Assembly: GCA_038330175.1 (NCBI GenBank)
Contig: JBBQNS010000001.1
Span: 15,552 to 79,551, forward strand
Length of the DNA stretch: 64,000 bases
Direction: 5' to 3'
DNA from: Kiritimatiellia bacterium
Lineage (GTDB): Bacteria; Verrucomicrobiota; Kiritimatiellia; CAIKKV01; CAITUY01
Position numbers and translations under genes: made by a program. How positions within the stretch are numbered: the first letter of the stretch is position 1; every line of letters begins with the position of its first letter. This document shows positions 126-63,963 of the stretch, piece by piece. The notes under the pieces were generated by a model. The model had not been told where the DNA came from and searched no databases. It saw nothing but the letters and a program-made list of their open reading frames with translations.

Positions 126-386
126 AAGTAATAACCATCAGAATCGCTACCTATCCCGCTTGGGCGCATCTGCGATCATGAGTTCTATTTAGGGACGTCG
201 CTTGCTACGTGCCGCTGGTCTATATGATCGCCGGTATAAGTCCAACGGCACGCCGCAAGCGACATCCCTACATAATGAGCGTGCGCAAAAAAATATCATC
301 ATTTTGGCTTTACACCGTCCCATCAAATGACTAAGTTATATTTATTAATTCGTAATGATGTAGTCTTTTGATGGCCAGAAATTATT

Positions 387-7060: not shown

Positions 7061-7099
7061 TAGGTGGCTGTCACCGCTGGGGACAGTGGCCACTACAAG

Positions 7100-7131
7100 C
7101 ATGATCAAGCTGTGTTTTAAAGCTTGATCAT
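7100..7131. repeat. AT-rich inverted repeat CATGATCAAGCT-N9-AGCTTGATCAT
   Basis: Perfect 11–12-bp inverted repeat. A related copy (CATGATCAA-N16-TTGATCATG) is at 16942–16975. Both lie in AT-rich non-coding DNA next to AbiE-type loci. Confidence 0.45.
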
Positions 7132-7245
7132 ACAATAAAATACCGACCGCGCATTGTCAGCACATTTCTTTTCTTACAGACCTCAGAGGTATGAGCCCGC
7201 CATTAGCGCAACATGGTTATGTAGCTGACTCAACCACCCGCTACG

Positions 7246-7452
7246 CTAGCAGCCTGTCGGGCTTCGCGCCTGTGGAGGGGCTACCGGCGGAGACCGCCGG
7301 CTCCAGAATATAATTTGCGTCAGCAAACAAGCGTCACGTGCTGCCCATTGCTGAATTCACCGAGGATAGCCCGTTCTTTTAATCTTTGGAGCCGGCGGTC
7401 ACCGCCGGTGGTGGCGGTTGAGTCCGAAGGCTGTGCAAGTCCGACAGGCTGC
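7246..7452. repeat. Complete ~205-bp MITE/REP-like element with ~60-bp imperfect terminal inverted repeats built around the core CTACCGGCGGAGACCGCCGGCTCC / GGAGCCGGCGGT(C/A)(T/C)CGCCGGT(A/G)G
   Basis: Left arm 7249–7306 and right arm 7387–7452 are reverse complements at both termini (GCAGCCTGTCGG...) and in the core. Related copies are at 56–125, 49831–50015 and 62976–63069. Confidence 0.7.
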
Positions 7453-7700
7453 CAGGCGTAGGGCGAACAGTTTGACCCTGTTTTTTTAAGCTCACGGAAC
7501 TGTACAGCGCGGGGCGTTTCGTCTATTTTTCAAGCATGTACATGAAGAACGAAGTGCGCAACCCAGTCTATATCAAGCTGGTAATAGCGATCGCCTTTAT
7601 CCAGCTACTCGCACTGGAGGCCATTTTACCTCCGGCCTTCGGACAAGAGCCTTCCGCCATTCTCGCCACTGTTAACACGCAAACGTAAAATACAGCTAAG

Positions 7701-16941: not shown

Positions 16942-16975
16942 CATGATCAAACTTTATAACAAGGCTTGATCATGT
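16942..16975. repeat. AT-rich inverted repeat CATGATCAA-N16-TTGATCATG, related to the one at 7100
   Basis: Lies in the ~370-bp AT-rich spacer that precedes the low-GC island starting at 17172. Confidence 0.4.
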
Positions 16976-17171
16976 TTTCGATATTTTGAATTTCCACTAA
17001 ATTTTATTGCCCCTGATCGACTCTCAACGTGATTAATCGTCGGTTTAAAAATAAAACAGTGCCGGATTTATCTCCTTGATACTATCGGTGCGCAATGATA
17101 TATAAATGCTCATAAATATATTATATCAGTGAACACTAATTATTCGGTTCGAAGTAAAAAGACGCGTTAAA

Positions 17172-29704: not shown

Positions 29705-30577
29705 TCAACCGGAAGTGATGATCCGCCATACACAAGAAAATGAGGTGCCAGGATCCTGCATGATCAAGCCGGGCTTGTGCATCAACTCACCATCATGTTG
29801 AGCGGGGTCCGCATGCCCGTACCACGGCTCGATACATACAAAGGGCGCACCGGGCTTGGCCCAGATCCCGAGATAGGGATAACCCGGGAATTCGACGGTG
29901 ACCCGGCGTGAATGCCGTCGCGAACACAGCCGGACCTGCTTGGACCTTACTTTCAAGAAAATCAAGGCATCGCGATCGAATAGATCTGACCGTAACGGGA
30001 GCACATTCTTATTGGAAAGAATCCGTTCTGATTTATCCGACAATAAGCCATTGGAGTCGAGCCAATGGGTGTCCAGTTTCTCTGCCTTTTCAAACTTTAA
30101 TGCGTAATCAGACACCTTATCCCCTGCCCCCCAGTTCAAGGCAAACCCCGGATGCTCCCCAATGGAAAACGGCATCACGCCTGTTCCGGTATTGAAAACT
30201 TCGGTCGTGATCTCCAGAATACCATCAGTCAGGCGATAGTGGCGCAGCAGAGAAAATTCAAAAGGATACTGTTTCCGGGTTACCGGCGTTGACTGAAGCT
30301 TGAACGATAGGACTTTTTCGGAAGCCTCAACCAATTCGAAGTTCAAATCCCGGGCAAAGCCATGTGGCGCCATCTCATATTTCCTGCCATCGAGGAGGTA
30401 ACTATTGTTGATCAACTTGCCGACAATTGGAAAAAGTAACGGAGCATGGCGCCCCCAGATAGCCGGGTTCGCCTGCCAGAGATATTCCGTTCCATCGGCC
30501 GCCTTCACACTGCTCAGTTCCGCTCCATGCCGTTTCACCGTGACTGATAATGCTGAATTGCTAATCGTGTGCTGCAT
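29705..30577 (-). CDS. Aldose 1-epimerase (galactose mutarotase-like) family protein
   Basis: GRHAPLLFPIVGKL...HGFAR...GEHPGF motifs. The start at 30577 (MQHT) is preferred. The ORF-track N-terminal extension to 30913 is implausible. Confidence 0.75.
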   Translation of the reverse strand: MQHTISNSALSVTVKRHGAELSSVKAADGTEYLWQANPAIWGRHAPLLFPIVGKLINNSYLLDGRKYEMAPHGFARDLNFELVEASEKVLSFKLQSTPVTRKQYPFEFSLLRHYRLTDGILEITTEVFNTGTGVMPFSIGEHPGFALNWGAGDKVSDYALKFEKAEKLDTHWLDSNGLLSDKSERILSNKNVLPLRSDLFDRDALIFLKVRSKQVRLCSRRHSRRVTVEFPGYPYLGIWAKPGAPFVCIEPWYGHADPAQHDGELMHKPGLIMQDPGTSFSCVWRIITSG

Positions 30578-30854
30578 TCTATGTTCTCCATTATTTTTAA
30601 AAGCTGTTTTTGAGGGAGGCCGCAAACCGGTCAACTTTCGCCGGCAAATAATCGCCCCAAAGTTATTCGATACGCCTAAACGGACGTACTTGTACCAAGC
30701 GTCACCAGTCGATGCAAACGCATATATACGCACAAAAAGATTAAAAATATTTGAACAGAAGCACGGTAGAGCCCGCAAAGGGCATCTACGGCGCGAACGC
30801 CGCAGCTGCATATTATTGAAAATCAAAACCGTTGGTATTATCGCCGTAGGCGTA

Positions 30855-30896
30855 AAACCTATTCCCTTCGCGATCTTCGCGTGCTTCTGTTCAAAC
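30855..30896. repeat. Copy of a ~45-bp conserved block AAACC(T/C)ATTCCC(T/C)T(T/C)GCGATCTTCG(C/T)GTGCTTCTGTTCAAA
   Basis: Near-identical to 50021–50066. The 3' part of that copy is in turn shared with 61106–61165. Confidence 0.5.
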
Positions 30897-30967
30897 TCTT
30901 TTCTTTCCGGCACGCCAAACGTCGTCAGTAAAGTGATCGAAGAAATTTGTCATACACCCGTCTTCAG

Positions 30968-40509: not shown

Positions 40510-40599
40510 CACGCGGCTCAGCAAGCTTCGCCCACCAAAAAATATGATCCATAAGGTGGAGACAATTCTTCTGGAGGGCGAAGCTTGCTGAGCCGCGTG
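40510..40599. repeat. 24-bp perfect inverted repeat (CACGCGGCTCAGCAAGCTTCGCCC ... GGGCGAAGCTTGCTGAGCCGCGTG) with a 42-nt loop containing a nested CCACC/GGTGG stem
   Basis: Exact reverse complementarity is seen directly in the sequence. Not followed by a T-tract, so not a canonical terminator. It lies in the 330-bp gap between mtfA and the large glycoside hydrolase gene. Confidence 0.6.
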
Positions 40600-49165: not shown

Positions 49166-49313
49166 AAATCACCTCTCTATAATCATTTATCTTAACACGC
49201 TTCACCGCACCGTGAAAAGGAGGAAGAGTTCATCAGATACAATGGGGTGCATCTGCGATCATTGGTGTTTTCAATGGATGTCGAACAGCATATCGTTTAT
49301 ATATTCTCCACTC

Positions 49314-49832
49314 ATGAAGATTATCGCCTGTGACCAACGCCACGTACCGCAAATTAGGACCATTTTTAATGATGCCATCTTGAATTCTACGGTACTCTGG
49401 GAATATGAGCCCCGCAGCCTGAAAACAGTCACGGACTGGTTTGAATCGAAGCGAAAGGGATCCTTTCCTGTAATTGGAATGGAAAATGATTTGGGTGAAT
49501 TCATGGGATTTGCCAGTTATGGAACTTTTCGTGACCGGCCGGGATATAAATACACTGCCGAACATTCCGTATACGTCGACCAACGGTTCCGCGGAAAGGG
49601 AATTGGCTCTCTCTTGATGAAGGAGTTGATCGTAAGCGCCCAATCTCACGATCTCCACACCCTGATTGGAGCCATTGATACCACCAATGAAGCCAGCATC
49701 GCGCTCCATCGCAGCCTTGGCTTTGAATACTGTGGCAGCATCAAACAAGCTGGCTTTAAGTTCGGGCGCTGGCTGGACATGGTCTTTTATCAGTTGATCT
49801 TGCCTACTCCGGCCCGCCCCATCGCTGGCTAA
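49314..49832 (+). CDS. GNAT-family N-acetyltransferase (phosphinothricin/PAT-like)
   Basis: GNAT motif A QRFRGKGIGSLLMKELI. ATG at 49314 (MKIIACDQ). Its TAA stop lies at the first bases of the adjacent repeat element. Confidence 0.75.
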   Translation: MKIIACDQRHVPQIRTIFNDAILNSTVLWEYEPRSLKTVTDWFESKRKGSFPVIGMENDLGEFMGFASYGTFRDRPGYKYTAEHSVYVDQRFRGKGIGSLLMKELIVSAQSHDLHTLIGAIDTTNEASIALHRSLGFEYCGSIKQAGFKFGRWLDMVFYQLILPTPARPIAG

Positions 49833-50015
49833 CAGCCTGTCGGGCTGCGCACCCTCGTAAGGCTACCGGCGGAGACCGCCGGCTCCAGAATATAGCTCGC
49901 GTCGGTAATCAAGCGCCATGTGCTTCACATTGCTTAATCCACCGAGGATAGCCCCGGATCTCCATCTTTGGAGCCGGCGGTCTCCGCCGGTAGTGAAGGT
50001 CTAGGCTGAAGGCGG
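49831..50015. repeat. MITE/REP-like element copy (left arm, diverged centre, and a truncated right arm)
   Basis: CAGCCTGTCGGG...CTACCGGCGGAGACCGCCGGCTCCAGAATAT...TTGGAGCCGGCGGTCTCCGCCGGTAG. The centre is ~75 % identical to the 7246–7452 copy. Confidence 0.7.
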
Positions 50016-50020
50016 TTGCA

Positions 50021-50100
50021 AACCCATTCCCCCTTTGCGATCTTCGTGTGCTTCTGTTCAAAAATCCTGCATTTTAGCTAACCGGTTGCAAATAAATAGG
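50021..50100 (+). promoter_or_regulatory. Conserved ~80-bp block upstream of the ECF sigma operon. Its 5' half matches 30855–30896 and its 3' half (...TTCAAAA-TCCTGCATT...GGTTGCAAATAAA) matches 61106–61165, upstream of the chitinase gene.
   Basis: Direct sequence similarity among three loci. Two of them sit ~100–140 bp upstream of plus-strand genes, suggesting a shared promoter or operator (inference). Confidence 0.4.
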
Positions 50101-50198
50101 ACACCGAAATTATCGTGTGCCCAAGAAATACCGACTGGAATATAAAATTTGTAATATATCGTCGCTTCCGCGTAATAGGAACTAGAGGGCTACATCCA

Positions 50199-50756
50199 GT
50201 GAACGAAGAAGAACTAGATCTACTTGTCGAACGGATCCAAAACGGTGACCGGGAGGCCTTTGGCGAAGTAGTGTTTGCCATCCGTAAAGAACTGCGGATT
50301 TTCCTCTCTGCCCACGCTTGCTCCGTCGATATGGTCGAAGAAGTACTCCAACACACCTTGGTGGTATGTTACGAAAACATCGCGAAATATGAACGACGCG
50401 GCACCTTTCTTTCCTGGACCAAGGGCATTGCCCGTAATCTCATGCTCAAAGAGCTTAAGGCCCGCTCCCGCTATGTGGCGCCCGGAGAGGACGAATTGGA
50501 TCGGATCGTTCTCGATGCCTCCATGCAATCGATCAAAGCCTTGGATCGTGAAGAAGTTTACGTGGAACACCTGCGCCATTGCCTCACTAAACTGTCCGAT
50601 GACTCACGCCAACTTGTGCAACAACGGTATTTCGACCGGTTATCAATCCGGGAGCTTGCGGAACGAAATCACCGAACCGAAACCTGGGTTGCTGTCGCCT
50701 TGTTCCGTGTGCGAGACATTCTGAGAGATTGCATGATGAGAGAGGTGGCCTCATGA
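50199..50756 (+). CDS. ECF-family RNA polymerase sigma factor (sigma-70 region 2 + region 4)
   Basis: ELDLLVERIQNGDREAFGEVV (region 2 start) and a C-terminal RQLVQQRYFDRLSIRELAERNHRTETWV HTH (region 4). Probable GTG start at 50199, with a GAGGG RBS 9 nt upstream. Confidence 0.8.
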   Translation: MNEEELDLLVERIQNGDREAFGEVVFAIRKELRIFLSAHACSVDMVEEVLQHTLVVCYENIAKYERRGTFLSWTKGIARNLMLKELKARSRYVAPGEDELDRIVLDASMQSIKALDREEVYVEHLRHCLTKLSDDSRQLVQQRYFDRLSIRELAERNHRTETWVAVALFRVRDILRDCMMREVAS

Positions 50757-61043: not shown

Positions 61044-61105
61044 AAATGATTAAACCTTCAACCCTTAACGGGTGTGACTGAAATCGATGGGTGCATTATC
61101 CGTTC

Positions 61106-61165
61106 TGACCTTCGCGTGTTTTCTTTCAAAATCCTTGCATTCCCGCTGAGGGGTTGCAAATAAAA
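61106..61165 (+). promoter_or_regulatory. Copy of the conserved upstream block (CTTCGCGTGTTTTCTTTCAAAATCCTTGCATTCCCGCTGAGGGGTTGCAAATAAA), ~140 bp upstream of the GH18 gene
   Basis: ~75 % identity to 50042–50097, which lies upstream of the ECF sigma operon. Confidence 0.4.
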
Positions 61166-61301
61166 AAACCAACGATCACAAATGCGCCCAAACAGGGATG
61201 CCAGAATTTACCCAAAATAGCTAGGCACGCTAACTGCTACTTAACTTATTCATGCGAAACAGGGAGTTATTTCAGGGCAACATTATCAAAGGAAAGAATC
61301 A

Positions 61302-62951
61302 ATGAATTCAAGCATACAAACCGCATTATGTCTGAAGAATCGGGATTTGTTTCTCAAATCAAAAACAATTCGTTACGCCTCGCTCTGTTTCTCGTTTTTA
61401 AGAAAGGCTGTATTTGGAGCGCTCTTGTTGGCCGTAACAAGCGGAACGGCGTTCAGTCAAATTGTTGCGGGTTATTATGCTGACTATACCGTTTCCGAAT
61501 ATCCGCCTTCGGCTATCCCTATGCAAAATCTGACGCATATTATGCATGCTTTTGCCTGGCCAAATGCCGATGGATCAATTTCGTATCCACAGGGGTTTCT
61601 GACCCCCGTTCCCGAGCTCACTCAGCGCGCTCACGCGGCAGGTAAAAAGGTCCTGTTGTCATTGGGGGGGTATAGCGATTCACTTGGATTCCCTGCAATG
61701 GCAGCCAATTCAAATGCTCGGGCAAAATTTGTGACGGCCCTGACGACATTTTGTCTTGCGAATCACTATGATGGGGCCGATCTAGACTGGGAATACCCAT
61801 CGAGTGCCACTGATTGTCAGAATCTGACCCTTTTGGTACAGGACATCAGGGCCTATTGGAAGCAAGCAGCGCCTGCCTTATTGCTCACCATGACCATCCA
61901 GGCCGATGATTGGCGCGGTAAATATTACGATGTCGCCACTCTGCACCCTTTATTGGATTGGATCGGCGTAATGACCTACTGCTATTATGGCTCATGGTCC
62001 GGGATTTCCGGGCATAATGCGCCTCTTTACTCTAACCCCTTGGATCCGATGGATGCTGGCTCAATCGACCAAAGTATCCGCCAATACTTCCATGACAAAC
62101 GGGGTGTTCCTTACAATAAATTGGTGTCGGGGATCGCATTTTATGGATTGGCTTTTACCGGGACCACCCAGCTCTATCAGCCTGCAGGCGGTGGCACGGC
62201 TTGCGAATACAAAGATTTGGTGGGTCTCAATTACACCTACAACTGGGATAGTGTCGCTCAAGTACCTTATCTGACCACTCCCAATAATGGGAAAATGATT
62301 ATTCCTTTTGATGACCCGGTATCGGCGCGCCTGAAATGTCAGTACACCAAAAAGCAAGGTTTGGCAGGAATCATGATCTGGGAATTGAGCCAGGACGTGG
62401 TCGCTATTGGCAACCAGCCGCTCCTCAGTGCCATTGGTTCAGAAATGTTGGCCCTCACCCCGCCGCCTCCGCCGCCCCCACCGCCGCCGCCGCCCGCAAC
62501 GCCCGTAAATGATTACGCAACAGGTGAAATACGAAGCGCAGGCACCCTTTCAGGCTCAGTGTCAGCCTTGCTCACGTCTGACAATGTCTATGAGTCGCTT
62601 AAAGAAGTACTTTCAAGTGGGACCTACAAAAAACAGTATTCCTATCTGAGCCACACATGGACTTTCAATGTCACTGGCGGAAATACCGTAGTCTTCACTG
62701 TCCAGGCGCACCATTCATCTAATAGCGAGAATGATCACTTTGCCTTCTCTTACTCGACAGATAACGTAAACTTTAAATCCATGCTGACCGTTACCAAAAC
62801 GAAGGACAATAACAGCAACCAAACGTTTTCATTGCCCCCCACCCTGAAGGGGAAAGTCTATATCCGAGTCACAGACACGAATCAATCGGCGGGTAAAAAA
62901 TCATTGGACACGCTGTATATCGACCAAATGTATATCCAATCTTCGCCGTAA
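61302..62951 (+). CDS. Glycoside hydrolase family 18 (chitinase-like), with a poly-proline linker and a C-terminal beta-rich domain
   Basis: GH18 catalytic motif DGADLDWEYP. The hydrophobic signal-like segment AVFGALLLAVTSGTAFSQ lies ~35 aa from the annotated start. A (P)13 linker is present. AAGGAAAG RBS. Confidence 0.85.
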   Translation: MNSSIQTALCLKNRDLFLKSKTIRYASLCFSFLRKAVFGALLLAVTSGTAFSQIVAGYYADYTVSEYPPSAIPMQNLTHIMHAFAWPNADGSISYPQGFLTPVPELTQRAHAAGKKVLLSLGGYSDSLGFPAMAANSNARAKFVTALTTFCLANHYDGADLDWEYPSSATDCQNLTLLVQDIRAYWKQAAPALLLTMTIQADDWRGKYYDVATLHPLLDWIGVMTYCYYGSWSGISGHNAPLYSNPLDPMDAGSIDQSIRQYFHDKRGVPYNKLVSGIAFYGLAFTGTTQLYQPAGGGTACEYKDLVGLNYTYNWDSVAQVPYLTTPNNGKMIIPFDDPVSARLKCQYTKKQGLAGIMIWELSQDVVAIGNQPLLSAIGSEMLALTPPPPPPPPPPPPATPVNDYATGEIRSAGTLSGSVSALLTSDNVYESLKEVLSSGTYKKQYSYLSHTWTFNVTGGNTVVFTVQAHHSSNSENDHFAFSYSTDNVNFKSMLTVTKTKDNNSNQTFSLPPTLKGKVYIRVTDTNQSAGKKSLDTLYIDQMYIQSSP

Positions 62952-62975
62952 GGCGGTTTTGCAAAGCCTTCGGCC

Positions 62976-63069
62976 TAGACAGTCACTACCGGCGGAGACC
63001 GCCGGCTCCAAAAATTGAGAACTGGAGCTATCCTATTATATTCTGGAGCCGGCGGTCCCCGCCGGTAGC
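62976..63069. repeat. Short (~95-bp) variant of the MITE/REP-like element: CTACCGGCGGAGACCGCCGGCTCC - 35-nt loop - GGAGCCGGCGGTCCCCGCCGGTAG
   Basis: Same core palindrome as the other three copies. Located between the convergent ends of the GH18 gene and the URO-D-family gene. Confidence 0.65.
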
Positions 63070-63096
63070 CTTCCTTGGGTGCGAAACCAAACAGGC

Positions 63097-63963
63097 TCAT
63101 AGCCCTTCCACGTCCGGGGCCAATTTCCCATACTCACGAAACGCCGTGCACATGGCGGCGAGTTTCTCTGGGGTGTGCTGAATCACATCCGGCGTGCTGT
63201 AGGCCATGCTGACCAACCCGCCCTGGTGGTTGCCTAGGGTGGCGATCATCCGGCGGACATAGGCACGAATGTCATCGAGCGAGCCATTGATCATCGTCTG
63301 CTGGATATCGACGGGACACCAAAAAGCCAATTTTCCGCCGACAGCAGCATCGAGATTTTCTAAACCCATATTTTCCTGCTGGTCCTGCTGGATCACGTCT
63401 AGACCCCATGCCTGCAGCCGCGGCAACAGGGGCAGGATATAGCCGCAAGAGTGGAGCCAGACATCCATGCCGAGATCATGGGCCAGCTTCCAATTCTCCA
63501 TGTAGTGGGGCATGAAGAATTCCTCAATCAGATCGAAGCCCACCATCATACGATCCTGCAGACCCCAGTCATCGTAGCCCATAACACCGTCGCAACCGGC
63601 GGCATGCAGGCTGCGGATGGAGTCACGCTGGGCATCAGCGAGGCGCGCAATGAGAGCCTTGGTCTCGTCCGGATTCTCATAGTAGGCAATGAACAGATTG
63701 TCCAAGCCGAGCAGATTGTGGGCACCTTCATTGAGGCTCGAGACGGGCATGACGCCAAGGCAGTACTTGGGGTTAGCCGACGCATTATTGGCGCGGATGG
63801 CCTCGCGAGCGCCCTCGAAGTGCCGGGGGTTATTCTGGTCGGGAATGACGTATTCGGCTTGGCGGGCAATATCGGGAATCGGCAATGAGGTCTTCTCGCC
63901 ATGGTTCCCCTCGCCCACGGGCCGAGTCCAGGTCGTGCCCCATGCATCGATTTTGTGCTCCAA
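63097..63963 (-). CDS. Uroporphyrinogen-decarboxylase (URO-D)/MtaA-like family protein. The N-terminus probably lies beyond the window edge.
   Basis: C-terminal conservation typical of the URO-D fold (DIRAYVRRMIATLGNHQGGLVSMAYSTPDVIQHTPEKL). Only 288 aa are in the window, versus ~340 expected. Confidence 0.65.
   Translation of the reverse strand: MEHKIDAWGTTWTRPVGEGNHGEKTSLPIPDIARQAEYVIPDQNNPRHFEGAREAIRANNASANPKYCLGVMPVSSLNEGAHNLLGLDNLFIAYYENPDETKALIARLADAQRDSIRSLHAAGCDGVMGYDDWGLQDRMMVGFDLIEEFFMPHYMENWKLAHDLGMDVWLHSCGYILPLLPRLQAWGLDVIQQDQQENMGLENLDAAVGGKLAFWCPVDIQQTMINGSLDDIRAYVRRMIATLGNHQGGLVSMAYSTPDVIQHTPEKLAAMCTAFREYGKLAPDVEGL

Follow-up and report, generated by a model that had tools for sequence, protein, structure and literature searches.

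Two plus-strand genes in a 64,000-nt stretch of Kiritimatiellia DNA (hereafter the window), one encoding the ECF sigma factor of a sigma/ebo operon and the other a GH18 chitinase, are each preceded by a similar block of sequence. A preliminary description of the window offered two explanations. The block could be a common promoter or operator, for example the target of the sigma factor itself, which would place the chitinase in its regulon, or it could be what is left of a small repeat bounded by direct repeats. Here we ask which of these accounts fits the sequence, and where the promoters of the two genes are most likely to lie. The blocks, designated A, B and C, and the genes beside them are as follows.

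50025-50129, plus strand: block A, a solo arm; 50031-50097 is the stretch aligned with C
50031-50062, plus strand: core of A
50063-50097, plus strand: 3′ extension of A, ending in GGTTGCAAATAAA
50108-50125, plus strand: diverged module R of A
61089-61196, plus strand: block C, a diverged A-type copy; 61099-61165 is aligned with A
61099-61130, plus strand: core-like arm of C
61131-61165, plus strand: 3′ extension of C
61171-61192, plus strand: module R of C
30750-30895, no strand: element B, a complete palindromic member of 146 nt
50199-50756, plus strand: ECF sigma factor gene, 185 aa, GTG start; Pfam Sigma70_r2 and r4_2
61302-62951, plus strand: GH18 chitinase gene, 549 aa; Pfam Glyco_hydro_18, E = 6e-63
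29705-30577, minus strand: aldose epimerase, 290 aa (homologues about 290 aa)

Relationship of the three blocks

Aligned over 50042-50097 and 61106-61165, A and C are identical in 45 of 62 columns (73%), close to the figure of about 75% given in the preliminary description, and the local alignment score of 47 is far above the scores of 500 shuffles (17.0 +/- 2.3, maximum 28). C is the top match of the A region in the whole window, self-matches and B aside. The 13-mer GGTTGCAAATAAA is present exactly at 50084 and 61152 and at no third site in the window, and the likeness fades weakly onward to about 50125 and about 61192. Both copies do lie 100-140 bp upstream of plus-strand genes, as had been reported: the end of A is 101 nt from the sigma GTG at 50199, and the end of C is 136 nt from the chitinase ATG at 61302. 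The near-identity claimed between the 5′ half of A and positions 30855-30896 was also recovered, with B at 30855-30895 matching A at 50020-50062 at 88% over 43 nt (blastn E = 3e-7). When up to 3 mismatches were allowed, the 22-nt core matched the window at A and B only, against a chance expectation of 0.00.

B is larger than had been recognized. A perfect left arm, missed in the preliminary description, is present at 30750-30764, and for this reason we regard B as a complete 146-nt element (of the size class with about 126 nt between arms) whose terminal arms, TTTGAACAGAAGCAC ... GTGCTTCTGTTCAAA, are perfect 15-nt inverted repeats. As single-stranded DNA it folds with z = -5.1, and its arm spacing and central GCCGYAGGC module are the same as in loci L004, L061, L032, L069 and L072 of other genomes. 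In contrast to B, A and C have no terminal inverted repeats of their own; no inverted partner of either was found within 450 nt upstream, and we therefore treat both as solo arms.

The longest open reading frame over B (29705-30913, minus strand, 402 aa) runs through it as a 112-codon over-extension of the aldose epimerase, within which B translates as ...FEQKHAKIAKG.... We rejected this N-terminal extension (about 110 codons) as coding, since all homologues are about 290 aa. The 402-aa frame is thus an artefact and B is truly intergenic, as first described; it is located between two co-directional genes (DUF2585 / epimerase).

We then took 99 distinct arms from other genomes, built a profile HMM and ran it on the window. 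It matched the right arm of B (1e-13), A (8e-12) and the left arm of B (2e-4), and gave no further significant match in the 64 kb. C scored marginally (E = 1.3) and so appears to be a diverged relative of A, not a good family member itself; what places it in the family is its likeness to A. Beyond the core, A and C have material that is private to the two of them, namely TCCTGCATT, GGTTGCAAATAAA and the weak module R. Because this lineage-specific 3′ extension is common to both, their sequences indicate two copies of one subfamily.

Repeats adjoining block A

A second repeat, distinct from the core family and carrying CTAC-tagged palindromes, abuts A on its upstream side. This nested-hairpin repeat is found in the window at four places.

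7231-7465: full copy
49-126: copy
49822-50024, plus strand: copy abutting A, with its right terminal arm missing; it supplies the upstream GGTTGCAAA at 50016
62954-63104, minus strand: copy

The copy at 49822-50024 is 80.5% identical over 195 nt to the one at 7245-7438. The repeat measures about 235 nt, its 4 copies in 64 kb are variously shortened, and it is built of two inverted CTACCGGCGGAGACCGCCGGCTCCA palindromes within outer inverted ends of about 30 nt (GCTAGCAGCCTGTCGGGCTTCGCGCC). The copy beside A overlaps the stop codon of the GNAT gene.

The sequence GGTTGCAAA is found at 50016 and again at 50084. We set aside as unproven the idea that the pair is a 9-bp target duplication. The copy at 50016 is how the nested-hairpin repeat normally ends on its 3′ side (compare 62959-62975 and 7426-7440), and the copy at 50084 belongs to the block common to A and C. 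Since the upstream GGTTGCAAA belongs to another repeat, the direct repeats that were proposed to bound the block mark the junction of two repeats instead.

Module R, with the consensus ATGATCGCAGATGCGCCCAAG, was found in A and C (above) and at two further sites, where the copies are better than those in A and C.

159-179, minus strand: module R
49242-49262, minus strand: module R

The copies at 49242-49262, in A and in C are aimed at a gene start 74-110 nt off, and the copy at 159-179 is aimed toward sequence beyond the window edge. The window also contains a palindrome, CATGATCAAGC...GCTTGATCATG, at two sites (7097-7131 and 16943-16977) and a hairpin at 40510-40599 with 31-nt arms that are 94% complementary; these three may be terminators or another repeat.

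The core in other genomes

We scanned one genome per species for exact matches to CTTCGYGTGYTTYYKTTCAAA (185,579 species, 596 Gb, the window's own genome not included). The 21-nt core CTTCGYGTGCTTCTGTTCAAA was matched 86 times in 74 loci, and about 80 of these matches are in PVC-type MAGs. One lake Kiritimatiellia MAG accounts for about 40 and a second lake MAG for 10, and the remaining carriers are several Experimental-Lakes MAGs, Verrucomicrobia and Opitutales MAGs, and Planctomycetota (Planctomicrobium, Fuerstiella, Pirellulales), so that Kiritimatiellia, Verrucomicrobiota and Planctomycetota are the PVC groups that carry the family. A few matches fall within coding regions of unrelated phyla, and these are accounted for by the chance expectation for the core pattern in 596 Gb, which by our own arithmetic is about 9 matches. 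A scan of viral contigs gave a single chance match, inside a coding region.

Upstream the core adjoins one more CCTTCGCGRT unit, and a short run of pyrimidines comes after it. With the window's 3 copies included, 47 of 89 core matches have an inverted partner upstream, and the spacings between arms are discrete (about 80, 126-128, 150, 230-240, 272-304 and 421 nt), from which it follows that the core is the arm of a palindromic element with an interchangeable central hairpin. Matches without a partner are mostly at contig ends, and many core copies lie only tens of bases from one, a closeness typical of repeats that break assemblies. The central modules seen were CCGCCTCCGGCGG, GCCGCAGGC and hairpins with a GTAC loop. 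The arm itself consists of about three 9-nt CTTCGCGNN units with CTTCTGTTCAAA at the end, and the largest forms extend outward through 11-nt CACTRAT units to GACTTCACC termini; the paired ends of an element would read GACTTCACCACTAAT...ATTAGTGGTGAAGTC or TTTGAACAGAAG...CTTCTGTTCAAA. The core runs in the same direction as the downstream gene in 31 cases and against it in 23 (crude ORF calls), and copies occur both upstream of genes and right after convergent genes. The preliminary description had set against its regulatory proposal the picture of a generic repeat with dozens of copies, some in coding regions. That picture does not hold inside the window, where only A and the arms of B are significant; in related genomes the core is a generic repeat of high copy number.

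We also searched for the part of the block that A and C alone have in common. Neither the 3′ half nor module R was found in any of the fetched loci except L075, the window's own duplicate contig, and the 3′ half was absent from beside the core in the genome and metagenome collections scanned. A metagenome scan for the core with GGTTGCAAA at a distance of 15-27 nt gave 0 matches. A scan for the 3′ half alone, as TGCATT-N10-GGTTGCAAATAAA, gave 28 that are unrelated and without the core, most of them representing one conserved gene of another organism.

Presence and absence at orthologous sites

Copies of the family are dispersed, and at orthologous sites they are present in some genomes and missing from others, as is the case for MITEs; three filled/empty pairs were found. 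At locus L005 the spacer is about 415 nt and contains a full element, and in the syntenic locus L020 the gap between the same genes is about 40 nt. The intervals compared in these closely related lake MAGs are 7190-7575 in L005 and 5905-5945 in L020; the element is about 370 nt and its outer termini are GACCTCACCACTAAT ... CAGTGGTGAAGTC. L088 carries an extra, related mosaic repeat of about 480 nt upstream of its chitinase gene that is missing in L087 and L089, although the chitinase proteins encoded at the three loci are identical. Finally, the gap between the GNAT and sigma genes is 366 nt in the window and 52 nt in L076, which has a sigma factor 90% identical, the same GNAT neighbour, and a GNAT stop codon that abuts the promoter motif described below. 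A thus lies within a stretch of about 314 nt that is missing from its closest orthologous locus.

For the elements that carry the core we could not define a target-site duplication: in 20 full elements the two flanks are rich in purines and mirror each other, with no direct repeats, and the L005/L020 pair shows no clean duplication. The only clean target duplication, of 10 bp, is in L072, and it belongs to a different, outer MITE that encloses a core palindrome. This outer element (L072 1985-2295, and also in L041 and L026) has CAGGGCATATTCAC inverted ends, the duplication AATAAATTCC and the core palindrome inside. About 15 near-identical copies of the CAGGGCATATTCAC-ended MITE are present at contig ends in one Kiritimatiellia MAG, and in L026 a further insertion is nested within it. 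The nesting in L072 shows how such repeats build mosaics. An all-versus-all comparison of 960 ORFs from 74 loci revealed no multi-copy protein beside the core that could be a cognate transposase, a weak negative in a sample of about 0.4 Mb, and no RAYT-type transposase was seen. The family itself is an observed entity, multi-copy, palindromic, indifferent to gene orientation and variably present between close relatives.

The pattern at the sigma locus has one exception. In L123, whose sigma factor is 88% identical, a colinear and diverged homologue of A occupies the same position and consists of a hairpin, a diverged arm, TGCATTT, TTGCATAT and GAAATTTGTCGTGCGCCCAA (local alignment score against A 35; shuffles 15.3 +/- 2.2). 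The L123 block is far more diverged than the promoter next to it. Its existence means that the block either predates the split of the two lineages or was inserted twice, and with either history block A may have some local role. In the same locus, positions 1029-2000 (about 970 nt) contain no called gene, and the GNAT gene upstream of sigma is apparently degraded, with a 3′ remnant ATCAGTTGATTTTATTGCC.

Conserved promoter-like motifs lie outside the blocks

We compared the regions between the blocks and the two start codons with those of orthologous loci, and in each a short conserved motif stands out.

50150-50177, plus strand: ECF-type promoter-like motif TGTAAT-N15-CGTAATA, 50-80 nt downstream of A
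61224-61238, plus strand: sigma54-like -24/-12 motif GGCACGCTAACTGCT (GGCACG-N5-TGCT), upstream of the chitinase gene

The sigma orthologues are 185 aa and start at the same codon. Across seven orthologous loci whose sigma proteins are 73-100% identical, neither TGTAAT nor GTAATA varies, and both stand at a fixed distance from that codon. ECF promoters have an AAC-type -35 element and a CGT-type -10 element and are often autoregulatory, as with B. subtilis sigma-W, -X and -M. TGTAAT-N15-CGTAATA, with its AAC-like -35 and CGT -10, has what we take to be the form of an autoregulated ECF promoter, and 50150-50177 is probably the autoregulated promoter of the sigma/ebo operon. Upstream of the chitinase, the window and three chitinase orthologue groups agree on an unvarying GGCACG..A.CTGCT, which has the GG-N10-GC spacing of sigma54 promoters; 61224-61238 is the sole exact match to GGCACG-N5-TGCT in the window. 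Its conservation suggests a chitinase gene that relies on sigma54 together with an enhancer-binding protein. Judged by these comparisons, the two genes are most likely driven by the motifs at 50150-50177 and 61224-61238.

These motifs bear directly on the proposal that the block is a promoter read by the adjacent ECF sigma factor, with the chitinase in its regulon. A promoter of this kind might be placed as the two copies are, sharing one orientation and 100-140 nt ahead of plus-strand genes. However, the pair of elements that defines an ECF promoter, a conserved -35 and -10 at fixed spacing, stands 50-80 nt downstream of A. All six sigma orthologue groups retain it, five of them without the block, and the block itself contains no AAC/CGT-type pair. 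Nor does it hold a sigma70-like site: scans for sigma70 promoters and intrinsic terminators around A and C found none within the blocks. The pattern TGTAAT-N13-18-CGTAA has one site in the whole window and none upstream of the chitinase, which therefore shows no sign of belonging to the sigma regulon. Elsewhere the core stands in both orientations and also downstream of genes. With the conserved promoters outside the blocks and most orthologous loci lacking a block altogether, the common promoter, the ECF target and the regulon are left unsupported together, and we regard a block promoter recognized by the sigma factor as very improbable.

A separate matter is whether the repeat supplied an operator or upstream activating site to a DNA-binding regulator common to both genes, and here it is the part private to A and C that counts, with its TGCA-N15-TGCAA, the exact 13-mer GGTTGCAAATAAA and module R. 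Sigma54 enhancer-binding proteins bind 80-150 nt upstream of a -24/-12 promoter, and C, at 60-125 nt upstream of the sigma54-like motif, is in the usual enhancer-binding zone and compatible with an upstream activating site. The persistence of a colinear homologue of A in L123 and the aim of three module R copies at nearby gene starts point the same way. Against this, the block is missing in five of six sigma and in all three chitinase orthologue groups, with the promoters kept; in the chitinase groups, unrelated sequence stands upstream of the same promoter in place of C. An identical run of 13 nt within a 62-column alignment of 73% identity has by our own estimate a chance of about 0.2, and the 3′ half did not accompany the core in any collection scanned. 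A single activator for both genes is in addition unlikely because the sigma promoter is of the ECF type and not the sigma54 type. We consider a shared operator improbable, though less so than the ECF promoter.

Could the block instead encode a structured RNA, whether a small RNA or a leader that regulates in cis? B and the full elements of the family can form long hairpins. In A and C, however, RNA folds on both strands were no better than shuffles (z between -2.0 and +0.45), and orientation with respect to genes is mixed in the family at large. Rfam 15 at gathering scores gave 0 matches in the window and only a tRNA in 19 related loci. Searching 49780-50210 permissively turned up nothing but noise, and a tRNA/tmRNA scan of the window found none. 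Furthermore, transcription from the conserved motifs, should these be the promoters, would begin downstream of the blocks and leave them outside both leaders. A structured RNA therefore seems to us highly unlikely.

There are also generic uses that do not depend on sequence, as spacer, insulator, terminator or nucleoid-protein binding site, and uses of this sort are known for REP/BIME and Correia elements. A and the nested-hairpin repeat lie exactly between the GNAT stop codon and the sigma promoter, B lies between co-directional genes, and the core is conserved across phyla, all of which would suit such a role. The absence of any terminator-like site in or beside the blocks and of a hairpin in A or C argues against it, and we hold generic use of these copies to be improbable.

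Comparison with known repeats

In several respects the core family resembles the Correia (CREE/NEMIS, Neisseria) and ERIC/IRU MITEs, which likewise measure about 100-400 nt, have long terminal inverted arms, occur in tens of copies per genome between genes and in either orientation, fall into discrete size classes according to their internal modules, and are present or absent at orthologous sites. Correia elements duplicate TA at their target, whereas for the core family no target-site duplication could be defined and no matching autonomous IS was found. Another difference is breadth: known bacterial MITE families are, to our knowledge, usually confined to one genus, and the arm of the core family is near-identical across phyla.

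The family also shares features with BOX elements of Streptococcus pneumoniae and with BIMEs, the REP mosaics of E. coli. These have fixed end modules and interchangeable central hairpins, include short units in variable number (here the 9-nt CTTCGCGNN and the 11-nt CACTRAT) and form mosaics with other repeats, as A does with the nested-hairpin repeat and as seen in L026, L072 and L088, but they have no sequence similarity to the core family. REPs are described as palindromes of 20-40 nt with a GTAG or CGTC tag (PMC3733652). By that definition the core family is not a REP or BIME, for its arm is not self-complementary and has no GTAG or CGTC tag. ECF promoters, in turn, are matched in position and form by TGTAAT-N15-CGTAATA and not by the block, which has no such pair. 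No description of the repeat family was found in the searchable literature, by sequence string or by topic.

Discussion

Taken together, these results make it likely that A, B and C belong to a modular, palindromic, MITE-/BIME-like family of intergenic repeats in PVC-type bacteria. Of the two original explanations, remnants of a small repeat is the one that survives, and the block can now be recognized as one arm of a modular palindromic family found widely among PVC-type MAGs. A complete element would consist of two inverted arms flanking a variable central hairpin module. B would then be a complete small element, and A and C solo right arms, A having presumably inserted beside or inside another repeat right after the GNAT stop codon. 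We infer that the family propagates at the DNA level, through transposition or recombination driven by an enzyme acting in trans, and that the copies in the window are passengers and not promoters of the sigma or chitinase genes. Several observations count against a pure repeat reading. Neither a target-site duplication nor a transposase with matching ends came to light in the DNA compared, C matches the wider family weakly, and the source genome was covered over 64 kb only. The near-identity of the 21-nt core across phyla exceeds what would be expected of a fast-decaying selfish element, and block A persists in the sister lineage represented by L123.

The last two observations leave room for a more ambitious proposal, which we put forward tentatively as a possibility well short of an even chance. 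The arm of about 31 nt, CCTTCGCGRTCTTCGCGTGCTTCTGTTCAAA, would mark an undescribed, PVC-wide modular palindromic family whose near-invariance is maintained by a conserved protein partner, or by horizontal movement among co-resident lake bacteria. By analogy with REP sequences and RAYT proteins, such a partner might be a transposase that has been domesticated or a DNA-binding factor of the host. On this proposal a local role may have been gained by A-type copies such as the one that two lineages retain ahead of the sigma/ebo operon.

For the window itself, with A, B and C read as members of the repeat family, the verdict is one of ordinary repeat remnants, and it is the wider family that appears to be undescribed. 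Its unusual feature is an arm of 21-31 nt whose sequence hardly differs between Kiritimatiellia, other Verrucomicrobiota and Planctomycetota. The analysis removes a tempting but wrong inference, that the GH18 chitinase is in the regulon of the ECF sigma factor beside the ebo operon, and offers two concrete conserved promoter candidates in its place. More generally, this modular palindromic repeat fragments the assemblies of freshwater Kiritimatiellia and other PVC genomes, can mimic shared regulatory motifs in motif-discovery runs, and, as at B, can create spurious ORFs or N-terminal extensions. A catalogue of the family would aid the annotation of PVC genomes and would help with the question of why its core is so strongly conserved.
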